From Candidatus Zambryskibacteria bacterium RIFOXYD1_FULL_40_13 (lineage in GTDB: Bacteria > Patescibacteriota > Minisyncoccia > Phycocordibacterales > DATDWN01): a DNA stretch of 61,044 nucleotides. Location: assembly GCA_001824295.1 (NCBI GenBank), contig MHWY01000005.1, positions 304 through 61,347 of the forward strand. Direction: 5' to 3'. Made by a program: the position numbers and the translations under genes. Below, piece after piece: positions 30,578 through 55,356 of this stretch (within the stretch, counting starts at the first letter, position 1; every line of letters begins with the position of its first letter). A model generated the notes under the pieces. The model was not told the DNA's origin. It ran no database searches and worked only from the letters and a program-made list of their open reading frames with translations.

Positions 30578-30652
30578 GCCGGGATAATTCAGTGGTGGAA
30601 TGCCGTCTTGGTAAGACGGATGTCGAGAGTCCGATTCTCTCTCCCGGCTCCA
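30578..30652 (+). tRNA. tRNA-Thr(GGU), CCA encoded
   Basis: GCCGGGA TA ATTC AGTGGTG GAAT G CCGTC TTGGTAA GACGG ATGTC GAGAG TCCGATT CTCTC TCCCGGC T CCA. Confidence 0.85.
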
Positions 30653-30656
30653 AAAA

Positions 30657-30732
30657 GCCATCTTAGCTCAGTTGGTAGAGCAACATATTCGTAATATGTG
30701 GGTCCCCAGTTCGATTCTGGGAGATGGCTCCA
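30657..30732 (+). tRNA. tRNA-Thr(CGU), CCA encoded
   Basis: GCCATCT TA GCTC AGTTGGTA GAGC A ACATA TTCGTAA TATGT GGGTC CCCAG TTCGATT CTGGG AGATGGC T CCA. Confidence 0.9.
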
Positions 30733-31622: not shown

Positions 31623-31666
31623 ATATTTTGCCCTTGGGGGTCTAATGAGCTATAATGGAGGGATGA

Positions 31667-31983
31667 CCCGGTAGTGAAATTTTAGTTCGATTATGTTCTA
31701 TACATACGTATTAAAGAATAAAGATGATAAACTGTATATTGGATATACAAAAGATCTAAAACAAAGATTTGCAGAACATAATCAAGGGTTAAATCTTTCG
31801 ACTAAAGCCAGTCGCCCGTGGAAGATTATTTATTATGAGTGCTGTCTAGATATTAATGATGCAAAGCGAAGAGAGGGGTATTTTAAAACCAGTCAAGGCC
31901 GCAGGTTACTACGACGGAGACTGAAGGAGTATTTTTATAAAATAAGGTCGAAAGATTTAACAAACTAAAATTCTACTACCGGG
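31667..31983 (+). mobile_element. 317-bp element: GIY-YIG ORF between 19-bp terminal inverted repeats, flanked by an ATGA duplication
   Basis: Left TIR CCCGGTAGTGAAATTTTAG (31667-31685). Right TIR CTAAAATTCTACTACCGGG (31965-31983). ATGA at 31663-31666 and 31984-31987. The same terminus family recurs at 32.7, 45.4 and 54.2 kb. Confidence 0.6.
31693..31968 (+). CDS. GIY-YIG (URI-domain) nuclease family protein, 91 aa
   Basis: FYTYVL...LYIGYT...RFAEHN...REGYFK, the classic short GIY-YIG pattern. Confidence 0.85.
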   Translation: MFYTYVLKNKDDKLYIGYTKDLKQRFAEHNQGLNLSTKASRPWKIIYYECCLDINDAKRREGYFKTSQGRRLLRRRLKEYFYKIRSKDLTN

Positions 31984-32664
31984 ATGATTCATTTTGACAA
32001 AGTATCAAAGATATACCTCGATAATTCAATTGCTCTAGAGGATATCTCGTTCTCTATTGAACCAAAGGAGTTCGTCTCTATTGTGGGGCATTCTGGCGCG
32101 GGAAAGACGACACTACTAAAGATGTTTCTTGGAGAAGAGCTCCCTACAAAAGGCAAGATTTATTACGAGTCCATAGACATAAGCACACTGAAAAAAAGTC
32201 AAATCAACGACTTCCGTCGCAAAATTGGTGTAGTTTTCCAAGACTTTAGACTTATACCCGACAAAAACGTATACGAAAATATAGCCTTCGCCATGGAGGC
32301 TTCTGGCAGAACTGACGAGGAAATAGAGGCGGATGTACCGCACGTCTTGGGGCTGGTAGACCTTGAGAGGAAGATGTGGAATTTCCCACATGAACTTTCT
32401 GGTGGAGAGAAACAGAGAGTGTCTATCGCCAGAGCTATAGTCAACCAACCGGATGTGGTTATTGCCGATGAACCGACTGGAAACCTAGACCCCCTAAACA
32501 CCTACGACATTGTTCAGATTCTAAAGAAGATAAATGACCTTGGTACTACAGTTGTCTTAACCACTCACAACAAGGGCGTGATTGATTCCCTGAAAAAAAG
32601 AGTTTTGACTATGGAGAACGGAAAAATAATTCGCGATGATAAAGAGGGAAAATACGTCATTTAG
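31984..32664 (+). CDS. ftsE: Cell-division ABC ATPase FtsE
   Basis: MIHFDKVSKIY..., Walker A GHSGAGKTT, signature LSGGEKQR, Walker B VVIADEP. Confidence 0.9.
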   Translation: MIHFDKVSKIYLDNSIALEDISFSIEPKEFVSIVGHSGAGKTTLLKMFLGEELPTKGKIYYESIDISTLKKSQINDFRRKIGVVFQDFRLIPDKNVYENIAFAMEASGRTDEEIEADVPHVLGLVDLERKMWNFPHELSGGEKQRVSIARAIVNQPDVVIADEPTGNLDPLNTYDIVQILKKINDLGTTVVLTTHNKGVIDSLKKRVLTMENGKIIRDDKEGKYVI

Positions 32665-32699: not shown

Positions 32700-32864
32700 C
32701 CCAGTGAAATGATTTTAAATTAAAGACATGAAAAGAAATACAAACAAACCGTTTGCAATAAACCAAAAAGTACATTACAGTGTTTATTATCAGAATTTAA
32801 AATCAAGATTTGAATTATCAAATCTTATTTCACAGGGTAGTGATTTTCAAAAACTCACTACCGC
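32700..32864. repeat. Degenerate palindromic elements of the GTAGTGAA family in the ftsE-ftsX spacer
   Basis: CCCAGTGAAATGATTTTAAATT (32700-32721) pairs with AATTTAAAATCA...ATTTCACAGGG (32794-32837). A mini hairpin GGGTAGTGA-N12-TCACTACCG lies at 32835-32864. Confidence 0.55.
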
Positions 32865-34187: not shown

Positions 34188-34248
34188 TGCGAGATCACCC
34201 GTCTCGACTTGGCAAGCTCGCGAGCCGAGGTGGATCTAATGGTAGGAT
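34188..34248 (+). pseudogene. 5' portion (acceptor strand to D-arm) of a split tRNA-Gln-like gene, carrying a 37-nt insert
   Basis: TGCGAGA TC a[CCCGTCTCGACTTGGCAAGCTCGCGAGCCGAGGTGGA]TCTAATGGTAGGAT. TGCGAGA is the exact complement of TCTCGCA at 34703-34709. Confidence 0.5.
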
Positions 34249-34250
34249 AT

Positions 34251-34502
34251 ATGAGTTGTCACGTTTATGTATTAAAAAGCAATAGACATGATAAATCTTA
34301 TGTTGGGTCAACAAATGATCTTGAAAGAAGATTATCAGAACACAATAACGGCAAATCAGCTTATACTTCAAAATATAAACCATGGAGTATAATTTATACT
34401 GAAGAGTTTAGTGTACTAAAGGAAGCTCGGGAAAGAGAGAGGTATTTAAAGGGTCGTAGCGGGAGAAGGTTTTTGAAAAAGATTTTTGATAATAAAAAAT
34501 GA
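34251..34502 (+). CDS. GIY-YIG (URI-domain) nuclease family protein, 83 aa
   Basis: HVYVL...SYVGST...RLSEHN...RERYLK. It is a paralog of the ORF at 31693-31968. The start choice (34251) is uncertain. Confidence 0.8.
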   Translation: MSCHVYVLKSNRHDKSYVGSTNDLERRLSEHNNGKSAYTSKYKPWSIIYTEEFSVLKEARERERYLKGRSGRRFLKKIFDNKK

Positions 34503-34516
34503 CTTCTGCACAAAGC

Positions 34517-34587
34517 TGGGAGATCGTCTAATGGTAGGACGCATCCCTCTGAAGGATGCTATCTTGGTTCGAGTCCAAGTCTCCCAG
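34517..34587 (+). tRNA. tRNA-Gln(CUG)
   Basis: TGGGAGA TC GTCT AATGGTA GGAC G CATCC CTCTGAA GGATG CTAT CTTGG TTCGAGT CCAAG TCTCCCA G. U1-A72 is typical of tRNA-Gln. Confidence 0.85.
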
Positions 34588-34609
34588 CTTTGTGCAGAAG
34601 TCTGAATAA

Positions 34610-34710
34610 TCGTCTAATGGCCCGTCTCGACTTGGCAAGCTCGCGAGCCGAGGCGGATAGGACACATCCCTCTGGAGGATGTTATCTTGGTTCGAGTCCA
34701 AGTCTCGCAG
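34610..34710 (+). pseudogene. tRNA-Gln-like body (positions 8-73) lacking its 5' acceptor strand, with a 37-nt insert in the D-loop
   Basis: TC GTCT AATGG[CCCGTCTCGACTTGGCAAGCTCGCGAGCCGAGGCGGA]TA GGAC A CATCC CTCTGGA GGATG TTAT CTTGG TTCGAGT CCAAG TCTCGCA G. Confidence 0.5.
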
Positions 34711-34740
34711 CTAGGAGTTTTTTGTTAAAAAAACGACGCC

Positions 34741-34869
34741 GCAAGAGACTTGGACTCGAACCAGGGAAGGGGTCGGGAAACGGGAGTTTCCCGTGTAGGA
34801 AGGCAGTGAGCGAAGCGAACGTTGGAAAACCGTCGGTTTCCAAGGAGTGAGAGATCCAAGTCTCCCAGC
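34741..34869 (+). ncRNA. Conserved structured element, copy X2 (unknown class; paralog at 20849-21039)
   Basis: Core blocks at 34764-34783 and 34787-34846 match X1. Hairpins CGGGAAAC-GGGA-GTTTCCCG and TTGGAAAACC-GTC-GGTTTCCAA. Closing helix GAGACTTGGA/TCCAAGTCTC. Confidence 0.4.
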
Positions 34870-34926
34870 CCTGCTCAGAATTAACCTTCTAAACCCTCGT
34901 GAGCTGAAGTTTGGTATAATGTAAAC

Positions 34927-36688: not shown

Positions 36689-36772
36689 TTTTGGTGGTAA
36701 TATGTAGTGGTAGGGGGTGGGGAGCCCAGTTTTAGCCCTAATTCTAAATTAACGAACCTGTGAAATAAACAC

Positions 36773-37948
36773 ATGGCAAATCAAAATCTTACAAATGCAA
36801 AAAAGGCGAAAAATGATGAGTTTTACACTCAATTTCCAGATATTCAAAAAGAAGTCGAGTCTTATCTTGAATATGATCCAAATGCTTTTAAAGGTAAGGT
36901 GGTTTACAGCAACTGCGATGACCCGTTTGAAAGCAATTTTTTTCGCTACTTCGTCCTAAATTTTAAACGACTAGGGTTAAAAAGGCTTATTGCAACTAGT
37001 TATAAGCCGTCACCAGTCGCGAATACTCAACTAGCATTGTTTGGTGATGATGTTACCCTTAGACCAGTCAAAGGGCGACCCAAAATCGTCGCTAATAAAT
37101 TTATTATCAACGAAGTTGGTGATGTGGATGGCGACGGCTCTTTTACGCTAGAGGATATTGCGAAGCAGCTTAGAACCAACAAAAACAACGAATGGACTCC
37201 ACTTGAGGGCGATGGTGATTTTAGAAGTGATGAATGTGTCGAGTTACTCAAACAGTCTGACATCATAGTCACCAATCCTCCATTTAGTTTATTTCGTGAA
37301 TATATTATGCAACTTTTTGAGTATAGTAAACAATTTCTCATTATTGGTAACATGGGTTCGGTTCTGTATAAAGAAATTTTTCCGTTCGTTCGAGATAATA
37401 AAATATGGCTGGGGAATGGTTTCCATGCAGGCAACGCATATTTTGCAACACCGAATACTCGTGATTATGCAACTGGAGTTTATGATCAAAAAACTGGCCT
37501 TGTAAAATTTCGCAACTGTATTTGGGTTACTAATATTGACCACGGTAAACGTCACCAGCCGATTGCTCTAATGACTATGGCGGAAAATTTGAAATTTAAT
37601 AGAAAAATGCAGGGTAAAATTGTCTATGACCACTACGACAACTATGATGCAATTGAGATTCCATTCACTAACGCTATTCCTAGTAACTATGATGGAATAA
37701 TGGGTGTACCAGTAAGTTTTCTTGATAAGTATTCACCTGAGCAGTTCGAAATTATGGGAATGTGCGAGAATGAGGATTTATATAAGTTAAAAACCAAATT
37801 TTATACATCGGCGGAATGTAAGCAGGCATACTTAGATAAGTTTGGAAAAAAAGGGGTTTATGATTTAAACGCCAGCGGTGTACTTATTCGTAACGGTTTA
37901 AGAGAGAAGGTTTACCAGAGAATATTAATTAAGCACAAAAAGAAATAA
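36773..37948 (+). CDS. N6-adenine DNA methyltransferase, M.EcoRI family
   Basis: [23 protein letters not shown] and [12 protein letters not shown] (NPPF catalytic motif). The protein looks collinear with M.EcoRI as I recall that sequence. Confidence 0.8.
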
Positions 37949-37949
37949 C

Positions 37950-39113
37950 ATGAAAACAACCTTAAAAAACGATATCACTATTAAAGAAGTTTGCGACGGC
38001 TTCGTTTACAACGAACTCGAAGGAAAAGGTTTGTTTGGTCTCTCTGGAAAACTAACTATTCAGCCAGAGTATCAGCGTAATTACATTTACGCTGACGGCA
38101 AACGTGATGTTGCTGTAATTGATTCAATTTTGAAGGGTTACCCAATAGGTTTAATTTATTTCAACCAAGTTGGCACTGATAAATTTGAAGTGCTCGACGG
38201 ACAGCAACGCATTACTAGTATTGGTCGGTTTGTGGCAGGCAAGTTTGCTGTCAAAGATAAAAACGGTCACGAACAATACTACAGCGGTATGGCTACCAAC
38301 CAACGAGAGCAGATCATGAACACTAAATTGTTGGTGTATTTGTGTAAAGGTGATGAGCCTGAGATTAAGGATTGGTTTAAGACTATCAACATCGCTGGAG
38401 TACCATTAACCGAACAAGAGATTCTTAATGCAGTATATTCTGGGCCTTTCGTCACTCGTGCTCGCGAAGAGTTTAGTAATAGTCAGAATGCTAATGTCCA
38501 GAAATGGAGCTCATACATCGCAGGTGACATCAAACGCCAAGCATATTTGGAACGGGCATTAGATTGGGTTTCTGGCGATGCAATCGACAATTATATGAGC
38601 ATGCATCGCAATGATAAAAATATTACCGAATTAAAAAAACATTTTAATATGGTAATTGATTGGGTTTCAACTACCTTCACTGACGTTGAAAGCGAAATGA
38701 AGGGTCTTGAGTGGAATAGGCTTTACGAAACTTACCATAAGAAAAAATATAAACCCGCTACAGTGTCCGCTTCAGTTCGGAAACTCTATGCCGATGGTTT
38801 TGTTAAGAATCGTCGAGGAATATTTGAATATGTTCTAGGTGGAGAAGTTGAAACAAAACTACTTGAAATACGAGTATTTGAGGACTCAGCTAAACGTTCT
38901 GTTTACGAAGCTCAAACTGCTAGCGCAAAGAAAAAAGGAGTTTCAAACTGTTCGCACTGTGCAGTGGGTCATGATGCAACCAAAGACAAGGTTTGGAGTA
39001 TTGCAGATATGGACGCCGACCATGTATCAGCTTGGAGCAAAGGGGGCAAAACAATGCTTAATAATTGCGAGATGTTGTGTAAGACACACAACCGGGCAAA
39101 AGGAAATCGGTAA
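37950..39113 (+). CDS. DUF262 (ParB-like/GmrS-type) domain fused to a C-terminal HNH nuclease
   Basis: [10 protein letters not shown] and [12 protein letters not shown] (DUF262). C-terminal [12 protein letters not shown]...[16 protein letters not shown] (HNH). Its start is 1 nt after the methyltransferase stop. Confidence 0.75.
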
Positions 39114-39123
39114 TATCTATAAA

Positions 39124-39408
39124 CTATTTTATAACTTTTAGATTAGCCCAAGTTCGTCCACTTGACTCTGTTACCAATATCTCTGCGTTTTTATTTGTAG
39201 TAGTAACTGCATTTTTTGACAAAGATAAAATTGTTGCCCTATCAAAATTACCAGAAATATTATATTCCCCATTTGGAAGTTTATATTTGATACCTTGATC
39301 TGAAATAATAAACTTTCTAAAGCCAGCGGATTCCATTGCTGCATGAAGAGGTTCGTAATCTCCTAAAACAGAATTTTGCAATTCAATTCTAACGGTATAT
39401 GATTTCAT
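39124..39408 (-). CDS. Small protein, GhoS/Cas2-like ferredoxin-fold pattern (hypothetical)
   Basis: 94 aa: YTVRIELQNSVLGDYEPLHAAMESAGFRKFIISDQGIKYKLPNGEY. The family assignment is tentative. Confidence 0.35.
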   Translation of the reverse strand: MKSYTVRIELQNSVLGDYEPLHAAMESAGFRKFIISDQGIKYKLPNGEYNISGNFDRATILSLSKNAVTTTNKNAEILVTESSGRTWANLKVIK

Positions 39409-39410
39409 AT

Positions 39411-39770
39411 TTATTTTAAATAAGAATTTTTTGCTCTTAATAATAAAATTTCACTTTGAATACCATTTATTGTGCCCTGTAAACCATTCATTTTATTGTT
39501 TGTATTTTCTTGTATATTGAAAAGTCTTTCAGAAAAATCATTGGCGACAGAATTATCACTTTTACTTGATAGTATGACTTCAACACTAACAGTTACTACG
39601 ATAAATGCAAGCGCAAAAAGTACCGCATATATTATGTTTTGATTTCTTGATTCTTGTTTTTCTGTCTGACCTTCAATTTTTACAAGGCGCTCAGATAGTT
39701 CTTTTAAAGTTTCTGCTTGAGCTTGTACCGTTCCTAGAATTTCAGTTTTTGTAGGATTTTTATCGGCCAT
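39411..39770 (-). CDS. Small single-pass membrane protein with flanking coiled-coil segments
   Basis: 119 aa with a central TM helix IIYAVLFALAFIVVTVSVEVIL. Confidence 0.45.
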   Translation of the reverse strand: MADKNPTKTEILGTVQAQAETLKELSERLVKIEGQTEKQESRNQNIIYAVLFALAFIVVTVSVEVILSSKSDNSVANDFSERLFNIQENTNNKMNGLQGTINGIQSEILLLRAKNSYLK

Positions 39771-39775
39771 ACTGT

Positions 39776-40033
39776 TTATTCTTTATAAAAACCAACTATG
39801 TGAAATACAGTGCTGTCAGTATTTTCCTCTGGAACTTCAGAATTTTGGATTGCTATATCTCGATTCTTATAAAGGTGAAAATCTATACCACCAAAAACAA
39901 CCCCTTTGGAAAAAGTGGTTCCAGAATTAAAGTTTACACCATTTATTTCAATAGGCACCTTGGGAGATAAAGACCCGTCAGGCTTCTCATCAAAAACGTC
40001 ATTAAATTTTACCCTTCTGTAGTTTTCATCCAT
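39776..40033 (-). CDS. Small hypothetical protein
   Basis: 85 aa, first gene of a tightly spaced three-gene minus-strand operon (2-5 nt gaps). Confidence 0.4.
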   Translation of the reverse strand: MDENYRRVKFNDVFDEKPDGSLSPKVPIEINGVNFNSGTTFSKGVVFGGIDFHLYKNRDIAIQNSEVPEENTDSTVFHIVGFYKE

Positions 40034-40184
40034 ATCTATAATTGTGGACTTATTTTACACTAATTTTAAGGTAAGGGCAATTTATATTAAAATACAAGAT
40101 CCCTTGCTTGATTGAAGTCGGTGTCGGGTACTGTTTAAGGAAAAGGGGGGCAAATGCGTCGATCCTACATGCTATAATACCCAC

Positions 40185-40301
40185 ATGGAAAAGGAACCAG
40201 TATTATTCTACGGAGGGAAGTATGGCTGTTTCTCAAACCTGTCTTCTTTTGCGGTAGAGATTGATGGGAAGGTGTTGGGGGCGAATTATGGGTGTTGTTA
40301 A
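40185..40301 (+). pseudogene. Truncated NADAR/YbiA-like (DUF1768) gene fragment
   Basis: 38-aa ORF MEKEPVLFYGGKYGCFSNLSSFAVEIDGKVLGANYGCC. The FYGG..GCFSN..F pattern is typical of NADAR N-termini, and a stop follows. Confidence 0.4.
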
Positions 40302-40316
40302 CCCTGTTGACTTTTG

Positions 40317-40334
40317 GGTTAACAATTGTTAACC
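40317..40334. promoter_or_regulatory. Perfect 18-bp palindrome (probable operator) overlapping the TA-module promoter
   Basis: GGTTAACAATTGTTAACC. Two further GTTAAC sites lie at ~40297 and ~40351. TTGACT is at 40307-40312. Confidence 0.5.
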
Positions 40335-40366
40335 TTAATGAAGCCACAGGGTTAACAAAGAAAACT

Positions 40367-40648
40367 ATGGAAAATAAAGGCAAAAAAGCAATATATATAT
40401 CTGTTCAAGAACTAGCAAAAATGCTAGGTATTAGTCGCATAGCTGTATTTAATAAAATCAAAAAAGGGCAAATTCCAGCAGAGAAAATTGGCCGTTCCTA
40501 TGCTATTTCAATGGAACATGTTACAGAAATAGTCGGCGGTTTAGATTCTGGTATTTTAACAGAAGAAAAAAAATCGGAAATTAAAAAGGCTGTTGAGAAA
40601 GTCGTGCAAGAGTACGGGGATACACTAAAGCTTCTAGGTAAAGAATAA
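40367..40648 (+). CDS. Helix-turn-helix (excisionase/MerR-like) DNA-binding protein, putative antitoxin
   Basis: ISVQELAKMLGISRIAVFNKIKKGQIPAEKIGRSYAI. It lies 2 nt upstream of the Doc-like gene. Confidence 0.65.
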   Translation: MENKGKKAIYISVQELAKMLGISRIAVFNKIKKGQIPAEKIGRSYAISMEHVTEIVGGLDSGILTEEKKSEIKKAVEKVVQEYGDTLKLLGKE

Positions 40649-40650
40649 AC

Positions 40651-41076
40651 ATGAAATTAAGAAGACTTAACATCACCGATATTGAATACGTCGCGTATCG
40701 TCTTGCAGAAGAGACTATGAAATGGGATGAACCGATTCCTGATTTTAGTACAAGATATACAAATTCACTAGAGAGGTGTATAGAACAACCATTTCAAGTG
40801 TTTGGTGGTAGACAACTGTATCCTGGATTGATTAAAAAAACATCAATTCTTTTCTATTTGATGATAAAAAATCATCCATTTCAGAATGGCAATAAGAGGA
40901 TAGCAATGACGACATTGTTTTATTTTTTGCATCAAAATAATAAATGGCTAAAGGTGGATAACCAAGAATTATATAATTTTGCTCGTTGGGTCGCGGAGAG
41001 TAATGCTAAATTGAAGGAAGATACAGTTAGAGCGATAGAGACATTTCTGAAGAATTATATAATCGATTTAAATTAA
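40651..41076 (+). CDS. doc: Fic/Doc-family toxin (death-on-curing type)
   Basis: 141 aa with the Fic motif HPFQNGNKRIA. Confidence 0.8.
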   Translation: MKLRRLNITDIEYVAYRLAEETMKWDEPIPDFSTRYTNSLERCIEQPFQVFGGRQLYPGLIKKTSILFYLMIKNHPFQNGNKRIAMTTLFYFLHQNNKWLKVDNQELYNFARWVAESNAKLKEDTVRAIETFLKNYIIDLN

Positions 41077-45285: not shown

Positions 45286-45368
45286 ACTTTTTGTCGCAAT
45301 AATTTGTGTGAATAATGTTGTATTGTCTTTCTTTTTGCCCCGAAATGAGGTAGAGTGGTCTCTTGATG

Positions 45369-45433
45369 CCCAGTAGTAGAAGTTGGCATTGTGCCAAAGG
45401 CACACAAAAACAGATGCCAACTTCACTACTGGG
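45369..45433. repeat. Palindromic MITE-like element M1 (GTAGTGAA family, inverted orientation)
   Basis: CCCAGTAGTAGAAGTTGGCAT ... ATGCCAACTTCACTACTGGG. Confidence 0.7.
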
Positions 45434-45460
45434 CTATCCGGTAGTGAAAATGACATTGAT

Positions 45461-45530
45461 CCAGTAGTGAATTTTGACATCGTGCTACGCACCGTCCGCA
45501 AGTGCGGACAATGTCAAAGTCTACTACTGG
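45461..45530. repeat. Palindromic MITE-like element M3
   Basis: CCAGTAGTGAATTTTGACAT ... ATGTCAAAGTCTACTACTGG, with an internal hairpin GTCCGC-aagt-GCGGAC. Confidence 0.7.
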
Positions 45531-45610
45531 ATTGAATACGTAATAAATAACAAACATGATAAGGTCGAAATTAGAAATAGATAATATTAAAATAACATTC
45601 TGCTCATAGA

Positions 45611-45679
45611 CCCAGTAGTGAATTTTGGCATAGGGCTTTGCCCAGCACATTATGTGCAATGCCAAAATCTACTACTGGG
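45611..45679. repeat. Palindromic MITE-like element M4
   Basis: CCCAGTAGTGAATTTTGGCAT ... ATGCCAAAATCTACTACTGGG. Confidence 0.7.
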
Positions 45680-45705
45680 AGAGCTATGTCATTTTTCACT
45701 ACTGG

Positions 45706-47157
45706 ATGGCAAAAGATGAAACAATAATAAATTTTGATAATGTCTTCTTTAGTTTTGGAATAAAGAAACCGATTTTGAATGAAGCAAGCTTTACTGTAAG
45801 GCGAGGGGTAAAGGTGACTATCATGGGACAAAACGGTGCTGGCAAGAGCACTCTTTTTGGCCTTATCTCGGGAGACCACAAACCCGAAGAAGGCAAGATA
45901 CATATTGGACAGGGATTGAGTATCGCTATGTCTCGTCAGGTAATACCGCGCTCTCAGATGGATATGACAATACGAGAGTTTTTTCAGAATTGTTTCCAAA
46001 AAAAGGTTTATGATATTGATCCCAGGATAGATACTGTTTTGGAGGCGGTAAACTTTGATGCACCAAAGGATAGAATAATAAAAACTTTTTCTGGTGGACA
46101 GCAGGCAAGACTCCTTCTGGCTTCTGCACTTATACAAGACCCGGACATATTGCTTTTGGACGAGCCAACAAACAACTTGGATAAAGAGGGTATAGCGCAC
46201 TTAACAAAATTTCTTGTTGATTACAAGAAAACGTGTCTCGTCATTTCCCATGATTCCGATTTTCTAAACGCTTTTACACACGGGGTTTTGTATTTGGATA
46301 TTTTCACAAAGAAGATAGAGCAGTATGTGGGGGACTATTTTGACGTGGTGGCAGAAATCTCTGCTAGGATAGAAAAGGAGAATAGAAAAAATGCTCAACT
46401 AGCCAAGGAGATTCAGCTTAATAAAGACAAAGCAAACTTTTTTGCAAACAAGGGTGGTCAGATGCGACTTGTTGCTCGTAGGATGCGAGACAAGGCAGAA
46501 GAGCTAGAGGAGGAGAAGGTTGACGTGAGACGGGAGGATAAAACCATAAGGCCCTTCGTCATACCCGTACAGCCAGATATAAATGGAGACATCATAAAGA
46601 TTACTTCCTTCTCCATGTTCAAAAACCACAAGGCAGTAGCTAGGAAGGCGAATGTGGTGTTGAGGAAGAAAGAGCACTTGCTTTTGACTGGTCCAAACGG
46701 TATCGGCAAAAGTACTCTTCTTGAGGCGTTGGCTAGTGGTACTGCCAAGGGGACCGAGATTGCTCCTGGGATTAAGGTTGGATACTACAGACAAGATTTT
46801 TCTACACTAAACTTTGAGGACACGGTTCATGATTCTCTCATGAGTGTTATGGAAGAGCAGGTTGAGGAGAGTTTGCGTTCGACAGCATCTGGGTTTTTGC
46901 TCAATGGGGATTTGATGAATACTAAGATTGGCAGTCTATCGGAGGGGCAGAAGGGGCTTGTGGCCTTCGCTAGACTGGTGTTGCAGAAGCCGGGGCTTCT
47001 TATACTAGATGAACCAACCAACCATATTAACTTCAGACACATTCCTTTTATTGCAAAGGCCTTGGATGGCTATGAGGGAGCAATGATACTTGTTTCCCAT
47101 GTGCCAGAATTTGTAAAACAAATTCGCATTGACGAAATCTTTCCGCTTGATAAGTAG
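45706..47157 (+). CDS. ABC-F family ATPase (two ABC domains, no TM domain)
   Basis: Two Walker A motifs (GQNGAGKST, GPNGIGKST) and two signatures (FSGGQQAR, LSEGQKG). Start taken at MAKDETIINF, immediately after the M2 right arm. Confidence 0.85.
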   Translation: MAKDETIINFDNVFFSFGIKKPILNEASFTVRRGVKVTIMGQNGAGKSTLFGLISGDHKPEEGKIHIGQGLSIAMSRQVIPRSQMDMTIREFFQNCFQKKVYDIDPRIDTVLEAVNFDAPKDRIIKTFSGGQQARLLLASALIQDPDILLLDEPTNNLDKEGIAHLTKFLVDYKKTCLVISHDSDFLNAFTHGVLYLDIFTKKIEQYVGDYFDVVAEISARIEKENRKNAQLAKEIQLNKDKANFFANKGGQMRLVARRMRDKAEELEEEKVDVRREDKTIRPFVIPVQPDINGDIIKITSFSMFKNHKAVARKANVVLRKKEHLLLTGPNGIGKSTLLEALASGTAKGTEIAPGIKVGYYRQDFSTLNFEDTVHDSLMSVMEEQVEESLRSTASGFLLNGDLMNTKIGSLSEGQKGLVAFARLVLQKPGLLILDEPTNHINFRHIPFIAKALDGYEGAMILVSHVPEFVKQIRIDEIFPLDK

Positions 47158-51764: not shown

Positions 51765-54101
51765 ATGATTAACACAAAAAATTTTGAAAAGTATTGTCGG
51801 GCAGCAAACTATCTTTCTGCCGCACAGATATTTTTAAAAGACAATTTTTTACTAGAGCGCCCACTATCTTTTGATGATATAAAGCCGAGACTTTTGGGTC
51901 ACTGGGGAACCTGCCCTGGGGTAAATCTCCTTTATGCCCACCTAAATGCTCTGACAAAGGAACATAATCTAGATACACTTTTCATTCTTGGTCCTGGGCA
52001 CGGTTTTGCTGGTCTTCAAGCAAACTTGTTTATTGAAGGAACTCTTTCAAAGTATTATCCAGACCTACCACAGAATAAAGGGGGTCTTGAAAAGATGGTC
52101 AAATCTTTTAGTTGGCCGTATGGTTTCCCAAGTCACACCAACCCAGGGACACCTGGTGCAATCTTGGAGGGTGGGGAGCTCGGATATTCGCTGGCTACCG
52201 CGTACGGCGCGGTTTTAGATAATCCAGATTTAATCGCGGTTGCAATGATTGGGGATGGTGAAGCAGAAACAGGGCCAACAGCCACAGCCTGGCACTTAAA
52301 TAAATTTATAAATCCGAAAACAAACGGAACAGTTTTACCTGTGCTTCATAGGAATGGTTACAAAATATCTGGGCCAACTATCTTTGGAAGAATGTCTGTT
52401 GAGGAACTTACATCACTTTTCACTGGCTATGGTTATCATCCGTATTTTGTAGATGGTGGAGAGGGGGTTCATGAAAGACTTTCTCTAACCCTTGAGGACT
52501 GCTACAAGGAAATAAAAGAGATAAAGGAGGCGTCCCCTGTGTCGCCAAGGTTTCCGATGATTGTTCTCACGACCCTGAAAGGTGAGGGTGGAATAAAAGA
52601 ACTTCATGGAAAAAAGATAGAAGGAAATTTTGCAGCCCACCAGGTTGTGGCAACCTTGGCAAAGTCAGACGAGGGCGAGCTTCGAATGGTTGAAGAGTGG
52701 CTTCGCTCGTATAACTTTAATGAATTATTTAATGCAGAAACCGGTTTTATAGACGAGATAAAGGAACTTATTCCAGAAGAGTCAAAAAGAATTGGAAACA
52801 ATAAACATTGTTTCGGCGGAGATAGGGTTTACAAAGACCTATCTCTTCCTTCAGTTACAGAAAATGCTGGAGAAGTTTCCGAGAGGGGTGTGTCTATGGT
52901 AAGCAATATGATTCAGGCTGGGGAATATCTGAAGAGGGTTATAGAGGCCAACGAGGCCGACAAAAATTTCAGAGTATTTTCACCAGACGAGACATATTCC
53001 AACAAACTACAGGCTATTTTCAAAGCAACCACTCGTTCCTTTGTTTGGCCACACATGGACCACGACGAAGACCTAGCAAGAGATGGAAGAGTAATAGAGA
53101 TGCTGTCGGAGCATTCACTTCAGGGGCTTATGCAGGGATATGTTTTGACAGGGAGACACGCAGTCTTTCCTTCGTACGAAGCTTTTATTCAAATAGTGGG
53201 TAGTATGACCGACCAATATGCTAAGTTTTTGCGTATTGCTCGCGAATTGTCGTGGAGAGGAGATATTTCTTCTCTGAATTATATTCTCACAAGTCCTGGT
53301 TGGGCACAGGAGCACAACGGCTTTTCTCACCAGAATCCTGGGTTTATAGATACAGTTCTCCAGCGACATGGCCCATATGTTAGTGTGTATTTTCCACCAG
53401 ACAGGAACTCAACCCTAGTTTGTTTAAAGAAAATGTTGGAAACAAAAAAGGAGATAAATGTTCTTGTCTCTGGAAAGGCGGATTCGCCAGAGTGGCTCAC
53501 TGTAGCAGAAGCGGAAAAAGCTCTATCGCAAGGTGTGATGACCTGGGATTTTGCTAGTGATGAAAATCCAGACATTGTTTTTGCTTCTGTTGGAGACTAT
53601 CTAACCAAAGAAAGTCTAGCTGCGATTACAACTATCAAGGAAGATGCGCCGGAAGTTAGGATAAGGTTCGTCAATATTCTTGAATTAACCGCAATGGGTA
53701 TCGGTTCAACAGAGAAACAAATGTCAGAGGGAAGCTTTGAAGGTTATTTTACAAAGGACAAGCCTGTTATACTAAATTTCCACGGTTATCCTGAGACCAT
53801 GAAGCAAGTTTTGTTTGACCACAAGGATGCAAGTGATCGATTCTCGATTCATGGATATATAGAGAATGGTTCAACTACGACTCCATTTGATATGCAGGTT
53901 AGAAACAAGACCAGTAGATTGCATATCGCTAGAGAAGCGATAGAGACACTCGGTAAAAATGGAGTTATCTCGGGGGATAAGGCAAATATTATCAGTCAAA
54001 AATATAGTAAACTTTTGGATGAACATCTAGCATTTATAAAAGAGACAGGTGATGATCCAGAGTATATAGCAAAATGGCAATGGTCCGGTAGTAGAAAATA
54101 A
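51765..54101 (+). CDS. xfp: Xylulose-5-P/fructose-6-P phosphoketolase
   Basis: 778 aa with LLGHWGTCPG, EGGELGY and GDGEAETGP (ThDP-binding) motifs. Confidence 0.93.
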   Translation: MINTKNFEKYCRAANYLSAAQIFLKDNFLLERPLSFDDIKPRLLGHWGTCPGVNLLYAHLNALTKEHNLDTLFILGPGHGFAGLQANLFIEGTLSKYYPDLPQNKGGLEKMVKSFSWPYGFPSHTNPGTPGAILEGGELGYSLATAYGAVLDNPDLIAVAMIGDGEAETGPTATAWHLNKFINPKTNGTVLPVLHRNGYKISGPTIFGRMSVEELTSLFTGYGYHPYFVDGGEGVHERLSLTLEDCYKEIKEIKEASPVSPRFPMIVLTTLKGEGGIKELHGKKIEGNFAAHQVVATLAKSDEGELRMVEEWLRSYNFNELFNAETGFIDEIKELIPEESKRIGNNKHCFGGDRVYKDLSLPSVTENAGEVSERGVSMVSNMIQAGEYLKRVIEANEADKNFRVFSPDETYSNKLQAIFKATTRSFVWPHMDHDEDLARDGRVIEMLSEHSLQGLMQGYVLTGRHAVFPSYEAFIQIVGSMTDQYAKFLRIARELSWRGDISSLNYILTSPGWAQEHNGFSHQNPGFIDTVLQRHGPYVSVYFPPDRNSTLVCLKKMLETKKEINVLVSGKADSPEWLTVAEAEKALSQGVMTWDFASDENPDIVFASVGDYLTKESLAAITTIKEDAPEVRIRFVNILELTAMGIGSTEKQMSEGSFEGYFTKDKPVILNFHGYPETMKQVLFDHKDASDRFSIHGYIENGSTTTPFDMQVRNKTSRLHIAREAIETLGKNGVISGDKANIISQKYSKLLDEHLAFIKETGDDPEYIAKWQWSGSRK

Positions 54102-54173
54102 CATTGAATAGATTCACTAAGTAAATAAATTGAAAATTGTCGAAATTATAAATAATAATTTAAAAAATTTCAC

Positions 54174-54207
54174 CGCTCGGTAGAGCGATGTTATTTTTCA
54201 CTACGGG
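54174..54207. repeat. Mini hairpin / solitary arm of the GTAGTGAA family abutting the ackA ATG
   Basis: ctCGGTAGAGcgATGTTATTTTTCACTACGGG, immediately followed by ATG at 54208. Confidence 0.45.
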
Positions 54208-55356
54208 ATGGAAAAAAATATCTTAGCAATTAACATTGGAAGCTCCTCAAAGAAGTACCACTTTTTTTCTGATGAAAGTCTTCTTTCTAGTGCACATTTT
54301 GAGCGTGACAATGAAAGACATATTGTAACTTATAGAGGGGGCGAGGAGCAGGAGATTAATTCGGAGACATATGAGAATAGTCTGGAATCATTTTATGAAA
54401 CCCTAAAGACAGGTGGACAGGTCAGTGACGAGAAGCCAGTTTCGGCTATTGGCCTCCGACTAGTTGCTCCGGGAGAATATTTTGCAAAAGACAATCTTGT
54501 AAATGAGGAATTTATTAAGAATCTTGAAACTATTGCAAAAAGTGATCCAACCCATATCGTCCCAGTACAGACAGAGCTTGGTTTTGTCAGTAAGCTTTTT
54601 CCAGGTATTAATATAGTTGCAGTTTCAGATAGTCGTTTTCACTCAACCATGTCACAGGTTGCAAGACAGTATGCTATCCCAGAGAAACTAGCTAAAGAGA
54701 AAGATATATATCGCTTTGGTTTCCATGGGATTTCTGTGGCAAGTATTGTTCATGACCTCCTTAGCCGACCATCTAGTATAGAGAAGAAAGTCGTTGTTTG
54801 CCACTTGGGTAGTGGGGCAAGCATAACAGCAGTATTGGATGGAAAAAGTGTGGATACTTCAATGGGTTACTCTCCCCTTGAAGGATTAATAATGAGTTCC
54901 CGGGTTGGAAATATTGATGCAGGTGCGGTATTGCGACTACTAGATGAAACAAGTCCAGACGAACTGCATAAATTGTTTTATTTCCAGAGTGGATTATTGG
55001 CTTTGAGTGGCCTGTCCGACGATATGAGAGTACTTCTCAGTGCCGAGAAGGAGGGGCACTCTGGAGCACATCTAGCTATTGAGTCTTTCGTTTATGCTGT
55101 TAGAAAATATATTGGTGCATATGCAACGGTGCTTCACGGTCTCGATGCTATTGTTTTTTCAGGAACAATGGGTGAGAGGGCCTTTCTTGTGCGAGAGAGG
55201 ATATGTAGTAACTTGGAATATTTGAATATTCACATTGATTTGGAAAAGAACAAAGTCGCTGTGGGTGGAACAAATATTGCAAGCTCTGGAATACCAATAT
55301 ATATAGTTAATGTGGATGAGGCAGGGGAGATTATGCGAAGGACTGCATTATTATAG
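54208..55356 (+). CDS. ackA: Acetate kinase
   Basis: ILAINIGSSSKKY N-terminus, FGFHGIS and HLGSGASI motifs. Confidence 0.9.
   Translation: MEKNILAINIGSSSKKYHFFSDESLLSSAHFERDNERHIVTYRGGEEQEINSETYENSLESFYETLKTGGQVSDEKPVSAIGLRLVAPGEYFAKDNLVNEEFIKNLETIAKSDPTHIVPVQTELGFVSKLFPGINIVAVSDSRFHSTMSQVARQYAIPEKLAKEKDIYRFGFHGISVASIVHDLLSRPSSIEKKVVVCHLGSGASITAVLDGKSVDTSMGYSPLEGLIMSSRVGNIDAGAVLRLLDETSPDELHKLFYFQSGLLALSGLSDDMRVLLSAEKEGHSGAHLAIESFVYAVRKYIGAYATVLHGLDAIVFSGTMGERAFLVRERICSNLEYLNIHIDLEKNKVAVGGTNIASSGIPIYIVNVDEAGEIMRRTALL

Follow-up and report, generated by a model that had tools for sequence, protein, structure and literature searches.

A start-codon-targeting element family in Patescibacteria that encodes a small predicted GIY-YIG nuclease, with a 317-bp copy at ftsE

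The gene ftsE of Candidatus Zambryskibacteria bacterium RIFOXYD1_FULL_40_13 is preceded by a short open reading frame (ORF) for a predicted GIY-YIG nuclease, which is bounded by inverted repeats and by two copies of the tetranucleotide ATGA, the second of which is the start of ftsE. We examined this arrangement in a stretch of 61,044 nucleotides (assembly GCA_001824295.1, contig MHWY01000005.1, positions 304 to 61,347 of the forward strand), referred to below as the window, and all positions are those of the window. The features of the locus are as follows.

31651-31656, plus strand: the -10 hexamer TATAAT of the host ftsE promoter, 6 nt before the original start codon, which is leaderless geometry.
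31663-31666, plus strand: left copy of the target duplication, ATGA, the original ftsE start codon plus A, which now opens the mini-ORF ATG ACC CGG TAG (31663-31674).
31667-31687, plus strand: left terminal inverted repeat, CCCGGTAGTGAAATTTTAGTT; the family consensus is YCCNGTAGT[GA/AG]AATTTY.
31689-31783, plus strand: internal 11-nt inverted repeat (31689-31699 / 31773-31783) that, if it pairs, would sequester the GIY-YIG start codon.
31693-31968, plus strand: predicted GIY-YIG nuclease ORF of 91 aa, of the UPF0213/Slx1-like branch, starting 26 nt inside the left end and with its stop codon 15 nt before the ftsE ATG.
31788-31961, plus strand: internal 15-nt perfect inverted repeat, GTTAAATCTTTCGAC / GTCGAAAGATTTAAC (31788-31802 / 31947-31961), conserved in the ATGA sub-family.
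31963-31983, plus strand: right terminal inverted repeat, AACTAAAATTCTACTACCGGG.
31984-31987, plus strand: right copy of the target duplication, ATGA, the start codon ftsE uses now.
31984-32664, plus strand: ftsE, the host gene whose start codon was targeted (Pfam ABC_tran; orthologues in 80 genomes).

The exact direct repeat is in fact 7 nt, GGGATGA, at 31660-66 and 31981-87. The left arm is CCCGGTAGTGAAATTTTAG(TT) and the right arm is (AA)CTAAAATTCTACTACCGGG, and they extend to 21 nt at 90% complementarity. The first-pass annotation of this locus, made from the sequence alone, had described arms of 19 nt pairing at 18 positions (17 Watson-Crick plus one G-T); a small correction is that over those 19 nt the arms form 17 Watson-Crick pairs, one G.T pair and one A.C mismatch. 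The 19-mer with up to three mismatches occurs twice in the window, against 0.01 expected by chance. Removing 31667-31987 leaves TATAATggagggATGATTCAT. Promoter-like leaderless spacing (TAnnnT, then 5-8 nt, then ATG) was found at about 20-29 ORFs of the window, which is more than the roughly 12 genes originally counted.

The 91-aa product matches the Pfam GIY-YIG model (PF01541) with 61.9 bits against a cut-off of 22.6 (E=7e-17). Its profile hits the UPF0213 proteins 1ywl and 1zg2 at 1e-7 to 1e-8, and then SLX1. An AF2 model (pLDDT 92.8) has the beta-beta-alpha-beta-alpha fold, with elements E2-8, E14-19, H22-31, E44-51 and H54-64, and the best Foldseek hits are 1zg2, 7cq3 (Slx1, rmsd 1.6 A over 55 columns) and 1ywl. 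The residues Y5, Y15, G17, R25, E28, H29, N30 and E61, which include the catalytic residues, are invariant in 14 and in 39 aligned sequences, and the ORF is under purifying selection (dN/dS about 0.13), although this selection could partly reflect the need to keep ribosomes delivered to the host ATG. No NCBIfam model scored above its cut-off. Rfam at gathering thresholds gave only tRNAs in the window; the element RNA is predicted to fold strongly (z = -5.6), but the sequence is protein-coding under purifying selection.

ORF-less copies with the same termini are also present in the window, as the first-pass annotation had proposed for 45.4 kb and, as degenerate copies, for 32.7 and 54.2 kb.

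45369-45433, no strand assigned: ORF-less family member of 65 bp, with arms CCCAGTAGTAGAAGTTGGCAT / ATGCCAACTTCACTACTGGG and an ATG (45366-45368) directly to its left.
45437-45706, no strand assigned: ORF-less member with T..A termini (TCCGGTAGTGAAAATGACAT ... ATGTCATTTTTCACTACTGGA), whose last A is the A of the ABC-F gene start codon (ATG 45706-45708), and which carries the two nested members that follow.
45460-45531, no strand assigned: nested 72-bp member with a 4-bp duplication, TTGA (45456-59 / 45532-35).
45611-45679, no strand assigned: nested 69-bp member flanked by a 3-bp AGA repeat.
54084-54208, no strand assigned: 125-bp ORF-less member with T..A termini, whose left arm overlaps the end of xfp and whose last A (54208) is the A of the ackA start codon; TGG is duplicated (54081-83 / 54209-11).
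32700-32863, no strand assigned: degenerate palindromic remnants in the ftsE-ftsX spacer, whose family membership is doubtful.

The last of these is too degenerate to score; one relative (L017, handles of this form denoting fetched sequences) lacks about 165 nt there, but no clean ends or duplication could be defined.

Comparison with relatives shows that the element is an insertion. Close relatives have the empty site, a -10 box, six bases and then ATGATTCA, and in the empty-site relatives L031 and L033 the homologous promoter directly precedes ATGATTCAC. Of 80 FtsE orthologue loci, 76 show no family terminus upstream, only one (L043) carries an element at the site, and the closest relatives share the upstream promoter sequence. 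Occupied and empty ftsE sites are interspersed on an FtsE tree. A possible excision footprint in L071 (TAGAATGACCCGGTACCATGATC) is ambiguous and we did not rely on it. Within the source species, all contigs carrying the exact GIY-YIG or FtsE protein are identical across the locus, so there is no empty allele within the species. Since that species is fixed for the insertion, and copies within one genome are only 78-87% identical, there is no direct sign of recent movement.

Homologues 63-85% identical carry the same termini in front of dozens of unrelated genes, among them map, PBP, GT11, typA, topA, the fucose synthase gene, secA, infC, groES and dnaG. The elements are about 303-322 bp in length, each with two roughly 20-bp terminal inverted repeats and a single ORF for an 85-94 aa GIY-YIG protein, and the consensus YCCNGTAGT[GA/AG]AATTT is present on both ends of 66 elements. 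In about 54 of 57 metagenome loci, and in 14 of 14 others, the ORF points at the start codon of a co-oriented host gene and abuts it. Ten host genes were confirmed by Pfam, with the profile starting at residues 1-7: IF3, DHFR, L10, GroES, DnaG, GreA, SecA, RuvX, SHMT and a GATase. At most 17% of insertions would be expected to fall at start codons even if every intragenic ATG insertion were purged, although part of the start-codon bias of ORF-bearing copies could be survivorship, because only expressed copies stay intact and our searches were protein-based. Pile-ups of several family members at one start codon occur in the window at 45.4 kb and in L246, L247, L257, L270, L295, L300 and L311.

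The flanking duplications are likewise not random. A direct duplication of exactly 4 bp was found in 44 of 65 sites and one of 3 bp in 12 of 65, whereas 0.7% and 1.8% of random controls, respectively, show such repeats; about 10-15% of copies lack a clean duplication. The 4-bp duplication always covers or completes the host ATG. As a refinement of the first-pass annotation, the duplication is not always ATGA: sub-families use TATG, ATGA, ATG or TGNN, and in the TGNN case the element's own terminal A rebuilds the ATG. The ORF-less copies, of 35-140 bp, are common and MITE-like, and their duplications include TGAA, TCAA, TTGA, TATA, TATG, CAAG and TTTA, among others. They also sit in motifs resembling the -35 box (TTGA) and the -10 box (TATA), and 11 of 28 abut an ORF start, compared with 4.9% of random positions. 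They are not deletion derivatives, since blastn found only the 16-22 nt termini in common with ORF-bearing elements.

We also looked for a larger autonomous partner. Sizes between termini fall only in the classes 35, 62-78, 104, 122-137 and 302-322 bp. The four candidates with paired termini 330-4000 bp apart (L111, L152, L176 and L197) have poor termini and ordinary genes inside and are chance matches. Among about 70 terminus pairs in the roughly 1-2 Mb of fetched loci, which are not whole genomes, neither an element longer than 322 bp nor a classical transposase was found between such termini, and no transposase Pfam family is recorded in the window at 25.7-57 kb. A protein-profile scan of IMG/VR viral contigs found no relative.

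We conclude, from comparative evidence, that positions 31667-31983 are one copy of a mobile family with inverted-repeat ends and target duplications that is specific for start codons. The inference of the first-pass annotation, that this is a candidate autonomous member of an undescribed family of small mobile elements with MITE-like derivatives that lands on start codons while preserving them, is supported, and none of the tests it had named as potentially refuting it did so. We found no description of this family in the literature available to us, and our literature searches agree with its statement that stand-alone GIY-YIG proteins are not known transposases.

What moves the element, and how are both it and its host gene expressed? 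The explanation we favor, with moderate confidence overall, has two inferred steps. The first, which we consider somewhat more likely than not, is that the GIY-YIG protein is the element's own mobility enzyme, which would recognize the paired or folded termini, make staggered cuts at the element ends and at the target, and leave joining and gap filling to host ligase and polymerase. The register relative to the ATG is specific to each sub-family, which argues that target choice is encoded by the element. However, no GIY-YIG enzyme is known to carry out transposition, as these enzymes hydrolyse DNA and are not known to do strand transfer, and the 91-aa protein has no separate DNA-binding domain that would explain recognition of the termini or of the target. 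Inverted-repeat ends plus a short fixed duplication are, moreover, the classical signature of DDE transposases, so an unseen enzyme acting in trans cannot be excluded.

The second step, which we regard as about as likely as not, is that the element has no promoter or ribosome-binding site of its own and lives off the captured leaderless start. Transcription would start at the left ATG, where ribosomes would load and translate a mini-ORF (MTR* in this copy), or in some relatives read straight into the nuclease as an in-frame fusion; they would then re-initiate at the nuclease ATG, terminate shortly before the duplicated host ATG or on an ATGA overlap with it, and re-initiate on ftsE. The anatomy of the family is consistent with such a relay: the ORF starts 25-27 nt from the left end, mini-ORFs end 2-18 nt before the nuclease ATG or the reading frame is fused in frame to the nuclease (in 5 loci), and the nuclease stop lies 14-23 nt before the host ATG or overlaps it as ATGA. 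The relay would explain why even essential genes tolerate the insertion. The first-pass annotation had instead speculated that cleavage of the terminal-repeat stem in the RNA regenerates a 5' end near the ATG, but the anatomy fits translational relay at least as well.

If the GIY-YIG protein does move the element, it adds a sixth enzyme chemistry to DNA transposition, after DDE/DEDD, HUH, serine, tyrosine and Cas1, and sets a new lower size limit for an autonomous mobile element. More tentatively, a stand-alone 85-94 aa GIY-YIG nuclease would be a new class of transposase and its roughly 315-bp element the smallest autonomous transposon known, recognizing gene start points, perhaps by sequence plus a DNA structure such as the edges of the open-promoter bubble in leaderless genes, which fits the ORF-less copies that also land in -10 and -35 boxes. 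Under this possible reading, the element expresses itself and the host gene in turn from one captured leaderless start codon by termination-reinitiation, and a sister sub-family does the same at tRNA-Gln genes. Independently of the enzyme, the precise and repeated landing on start codons of essential genes (secA, infC, groES, dnaG, topA, ftsE) without killing them is a new solution to the “safe harbour” problem of transposons, and a natural experiment on leaderless initiation and translational re-initiation in Patescibacteria, ultra-small bacteria that cannot yet be manipulated genetically. There are practical consequences as well. Gene callers mis-place starts around these elements, as for the ABC-F gene, which is called from 45652 instead of 45706, and the “GIY-YIG nuclease family protein” annotations that are abundant in these genomes are probably mostly mobile elements. 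In addition, a tiny nuclease with a defined cut register at ATG could interest tool builders.

Of the alternatives, the one that survives best, although we consider it unlikely, is that these are ordinary non-autonomous cassettes (MITEs or mobile insertion cassettes) moved by a classical transposase encoded elsewhere, with the GIY-YIG gene as cargo, whether a selfish nuclease, a helper that makes breaks or a host-beneficial gene. Inverted-repeat ends with a 3-4 bp duplication would be typical of DDE transposition, for example in the IS5, IS701 and IS3 groups, and the sharing of only the termini between ORF-less and ORF-bearing copies is seen with many bacterial MITEs, while GIY-YIG enzymes are not known to be transposases. 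Against this, no larger element or transposase was found in the limited set of loci described above, and all 66 members of at least 300 bp carry the same cargo at a fixed distance of 25-27 nt from the end, with invariant catalytic residues and the low dN/dS. Also, a passenger would not explain why the insertion register covaries with the element's terminal base.

A free-standing GIY-YIG homing endonuclease gene, spreading between alleles by double-strand-break repair with the repeats being incidental, is very unlikely and already largely refuted as the sole mechanism, although it could still operate alongside transposition. Free-standing GIY-YIG homing genes appear to exist in phages, and the occupation of the same ftsE site in three lineages interspersed with empty ones is the patchy pattern that homing gives. 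However, homing needs flanking homology, and the family sits in front of dozens of non-homologous genes that share only 3-4 bp with each other; the conserved termini, the target duplications and the ORF-less derivatives are not features of homing genes, the protein lacks the DNA-binding domain that gives homing enzymes their long target sites, and no copy was found in the viral contigs scanned. Finally, that a resident gene happens to be flanked by REP-like hairpins serving as RNA-stability or terminator structures, as the GTAG in the termini and the strong predicted RNA fold might suggest, is refuted by the empty sites in close relatives and the flanking duplications of variable sequence, and the same unit is found at unrelated loci in many genomes.

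It is instructive to compare the family with known systems. With bacterial insertion sequences and their MITE derivatives, such as the IS5/IS701 groups with 4-bp duplications and the Correia/NEMIS elements of Neisseria, it shares terminal inverted repeats, a short target duplication of fixed length, many copies per genome, short ORF-less derivatives, nested or tandem insertions and a location next to genes with promoter-like hexamers inside the repeats, and, as for Correia elements, the transcript would form a long stem. It differs in that its only protein is a 91-aa GIY-YIG protein and not a DDE, DEDD, HUH, serine or tyrosine enzyme, that at about 315 bp it is apparently several-fold smaller than known insertion sequences, that insertion is at start codons with the codon rebuilt, and that ORF-less copies are not internal deletion products. 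REP/REPIN elements with their RAYT (HUH Y1) transposase are similar in having short palindromic units with a conserved GTAG scattered through a genome, a small nuclease gene flanked by inverted copies of the unit and a conserved imperfection in the stem, but here the protein fold is GIY-YIG and not HUH, target duplications are present whereas none are known for REP or IS200/IS605 elements, and the elements are not extragenic in the usual sense but sit on start codons and promoter boxes.

Free-standing GIY-YIG homing endonuclease genes (phage T4 seg genes, relatives of I-TevI) share the GIY-YIG catalytic core, a small selfish ORF wedged between genes, and co-orientation and close coupling with the downstream gene; the present element has no DNA-binding domain, has inverted-repeat ends and target duplications, and has dozens of unrelated target genes rather than one homologous site. 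The UPF0213/YhbQ proteins and the eukaryotic Slx1 nuclease domain are the closest relatives by sequence and fold, and Slx1 cuts branched and cruciform-like DNA, which suits a substrate made of paired inverted repeats, but UPF0213 proteins have no known association with mobile elements, Slx1 works with the partner Slx4, and the membership inferred here is of the fold and branch only. The IS200/IS605 family also comprises very small elements that insert next to a specific 4-5 nt target and use folded ends, although these use a HUH enzyme, produce no target duplication and have subterminal hairpins rather than terminal inverted repeats. Penelope-like retroelements are probably the only established mobile elements that use a GIY-YIG nuclease for integration, but they are eukaryotic retroelements with a reverse transcriptase, whereas the element described here has no reverse transcriptase and has DNA-transposon-type ends.

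From 31651 the window reads TATAAT, ggaggg, ATGA, then directly CCCGGTAGTGAAATTTTAGTT and, at the far end of the element, AACTAAAATTCTACTACCGGG followed by ATGA and TTCAT, and this segment is organized as follows:

31651-31656, TATAAT, the -10 box
31663-31666, ATGA, left flanking copy
31667-31687, left arm of the inverted repeat
31693-31968, ORF for a GIY-YIG domain protein (E=7e-17)
31963-31983, right arm of the inverted repeat
31984-31987, ATGA, right flanking copy

prfB lies upstream, and ftsE and ftsX lie downstream. A repeat search gave the two arms as 21 nt at 90% complementarity, and the 19-mer with up to 3 mismatches occurs twice, against 0.01 expected. Over the 19 nt that the first-pass annotation had described as 17 Watson-Crick pairs plus one G-T, the pairing is 17 Watson-Crick pairs, one G.T and one A.C. 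Leaderless-type spacing (-10 box, then 5-8 nt, then ATG) is common in the window, and overall the features noted in the first-pass annotation, an ORF bounded by inverted repeats and an ATGA duplication at the ftsE start codon, are confirmed. The longest prfB ORF (TTG 30672) overlaps tRNA-Thr (30657-30732; the region is 30578-30732), so the true prfB start is probably further downstream, and gene callers have placed it at two different ATGs, giving proteins of 294 aa and 308 aa.

Contigs that encode exactly the same proteins all come from one groundwater species and are identical at the locus, and we therefore fetched FtsE orthologs from 80 species-representative genomes. In 76 of the 80 the upstream 700 nt has no family terminus, and only the locus designated L043 carries an element at the site; the start otherwise reads -10 box, N6-7, ATGATTYAYTT. 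The closest orthologs (loci L031 and L033, 89-90% FtsE identity) share the upstream sequence of the window and run directly into a single ATGATTCAC. L043, a further lineage, has a 316-bp element at the same codon, while its nearest relatives (L040-42, L048) are empty. On an FtsE tree the occupied sites (the window, the relative L017, and L043) are interspersed with empty ones, which means either repeated insertion at one codon or precise excision, although a single-protein neighbor-joining tree cannot decide between them. About 20 nt upstream of ftsE in L071 (JAIFWQ010000078.1), the sequence TAGAATGACCCGGTACCATGATC resembles ATGA plus the first 7 nt of a left terminus, then CC plus ATGA, and may be an imprecise excision footprint or may be chance.

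Proteins 63-85% identical to that of the window are numerous, and we read the DNA around them in three sets: contigs encoding exact proteins, the 14 hits of a DNA pattern in species-representative genomes, and 80 metagenome loci found with a protein profile. The architecture is constant. The termini are YCCNGTAGT[GA/AG]AATTT..., the ORF starts 25-27 nt inside the left end, its stop lies 15-23 nt before the right end or sits in the flanking TGA, and the total length is 303-322 bp. All 66 distinct elements of this size encode the nuclease. In the fetched loci, sizes between paired termini fall only into 35, 62-78, 104, 122-137 and 302-322 bp, and the four longer pairs are chance matches with ordinary genes inside. 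Positions 10-11 of the termini (in the window, for example, 31676-31677 versus 31973-31974) are GA on one arm and AG on the other, which gives tandem G.T plus A.C if the arms pair; this holds in 53 of 66 ORF-bearing elements and in the short copies, and either arm can be on the 5′ side of the ORF. The feature is conserved across deep divergence and is unexplained. A 10-kb contig binned as Nitrospira sp. (L013 / L231, JBEBJM010000012.1) carries an element 87% identical in DNA to one from a Parcubacteria genome (L188), and is either a mis-binned Patescibacteria contig or a case of horizontal transfer.

Where do the elements land? In 14 of 14 elements from the first sets, and in about 54 of 57 true elements from the metagenome set (the two overlap in part), the ORF points toward a long ORF and abuts its start codon, although it should be noted that protein-based searches favor intact, expressed copies. 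Ten of the host genes were checked with Pfam and in each the family profile begins at residues 1-7: IF-3, DHFR, L10, GroES, DnaG, GreA, SecA, RuvX, SHMT and a glutamine amidotransferase. From their N-termini others look like map, topA, typA, alaS and a PBP, but these names are inferences, except for the PBP and ftsE, which have Pfam support. The flanking direct repeat is exactly 4 bp in 44 of 65 distinct sites and 3 bp in 12, whereas in random controls the figures are 0.7% and 1.8%; about 10-15% of copies lack a clean duplication.

There are three registers, and each goes with a sub-family: termini C..G with TATG; termini C..G with ATGA (the type in the window), or just ATG; and termini T..A with TGNN (TGAA, TGGA, TGAG, TGTG, TGTT), in which the base to the left of the duplication is A and the element's own last A rebuilds ATG on the right. 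One copy in front of map has GTGA on the left and (G)TGA on the right, so the flank follows the GTG start of the host. For comparison, ATG occurs 1,898 times on both strands of the window, there are about 65 gene starts, and 313 ATGs are intergenic, so that even if every intragenic insertion were lost, at most about 17% of ATG insertions would sit on a start codon. Several elements have the end of another family member as their left flank, and in the window four members are stacked in front of one ABC-F gene.

A search for ORF-less relatives returned, among much noise, about 30 short elements from many Patescibacteria assemblies, which share only the 16-22 nt termini with the ORF-bearing elements and have 4-bp duplications of varied sequence. 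Of these, 11 of 28 abut the start of an ORF of at least 100 aa, against 4.9% of random positions. Others (loci L135, L142 and L173) sit in TTGA(CA), inside TTGACA-like -35 boxes with a TTGA duplication, and have a properly spaced -10 box downstream. The 35-bp minimal palindromes sit immediately before TATAAT boxes (L112, L131, L139, L170, L184, L205), where the TTGnaa of the left arm lies 16-17 nt from the -10 box; copies placed directly before TATAAT, among which we also count L198, have the duplication TATA. In each case the promoter motif is regenerated next to the gene, and the termini themselves contain TTGACA-like and TAGAAT-like hexamers. Three of the ORF-less copies in the window are the following:

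54084-54208, ends with the A of the ackA ATG
45437-45706, ends with the A of the ABC-F ATG
45460-45531, has a TTGA duplication

The ABC-F ATPase gene is called from ATG 45652, which lies inside a repeat element, but the N-terminus MAKDETIINFDNV starting at 45706 is the likely true start (region 45652-45708), and elements of this family probably cause systematic errors in start-codon calls.

The catalytic residues of the protein are invariant, and pairwise dN/dS has a median of 0.13, or 0.19 where dS<1. Its nearest solved relatives are the UPF0213 proteins EF2693 and BH0048, then Slx1, and a confident predicted model (pLDDT 92.8) superposes best on the same proteins. The wider family is large, with 3,183 clusters at 50% identity at E<=1e-10, but no relative was found in viral contigs. 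Notably, at window 34190-34890 there is a second, different GIY-YIG ORF (34251-34502, 83 aa, 41% identical to the first) that lacks the CCNGTAGTGAA termini. It ends just before tRNA-Gln (34517-34588) and is preceded by a partial duplicate of the 5′ part of that tRNA, which carries a GC-rich hairpin insert, while a third, broken tRNA-Gln copy (about 34604-34712) and an inverted T-arm copy (34745-34763) follow. Homologs in three other contig sets (L321/L322, L324, L325) also sit next to tRNA-Gln, and this looks like a sister sub-family that targets tRNA-Gln. Downstream of this tRNA-Gln nest, at about 36770-41000, lies a defense-type gene cluster that includes an EcoRI-methylase-like gene, a GmrSD_N/HNH protein, HTH and Fic proteins and a cytidine deaminase, based on precomputed Pfam families on matching contigs. 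In addition, a GIY-YIG ORF 51% identical to that of the window (L014, JBBTVZ010000052.1, 1640-1920) is flanked by a different 11-nt inverted repeat (CCCCGTTAGAT / ATCTAACGGGG) and is not at a start codon, the L10 gene starting about 60 nt further on. More distant sub-families may have their own ends and targets.

Comparison of these loci shows a mobile family with inverted-repeat ends and target duplications, a strong bias for start codons, and no other gene. A major question arising from this is “What moves it?” We infer that the nuclease is the mobility enzyme because it is the only and invariable content of the large members, because it is under purifying selection with its catalytic site intact, because the insertion register is a heritable property of each sub-family and covaries with the terminal base pair, and because its nearest characterized relative by fold, Slx1, cuts branched DNA, which is the kind of substrate that paired termini would offer. 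However, the chemistry of joining is unknown, no GIY-YIG enzyme is known to transpose DNA, and the signature is the classical one of DDE enzymes, for which a partner could not be sought across whole genomes. Also, copies within a genome are only 78-87% identical, so nothing shows recent movement.

The expression logic is likewise inferred. The left copy of the start codon keeps the host promoter, and from it a mini-ORF runs into the terminus (MTR* here; MNPVVEF* and MPRSRISN* elsewhere) and stops 2-18 nt before the nuclease ATG, although in five loci it is instead fused in frame to the nuclease (MPRSETSKAIMFY...). The nuclease ORF ends 14-23 nt before the host ATG, or overlaps it as ATGA. This is the anatomy of termination-reinitiation, and it would explain why essential genes tolerate the insert. 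The predicted RNA is strongly folded (z = -5.6), with an outer stem made by the termini and a stem over the nuclease ATG, and therefore RNA processing, which the first-pass annotation had raised as a speculative route to a new 5′ end near the ATG, remains possible.

We found no description of this family in full-text literature searches; a GIY-YIG gene is listed among genes transferred from Patescibacteria (PMC12455944). On this basis we consider it to be categorically new, with the caveat that the role of the enzyme is inferred. By structure it is an insertion sequence with MITE-like relatives, but it does not encode a known transposase, which is the defining property of such elements. It resembles REP/RAYT in pairing a small nuclease with GTAG-containing palindromes, but the fold differs and duplications are present. 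Lastly, it is not a homing endonuclease gene, because its many targets share only 3-4 bp.
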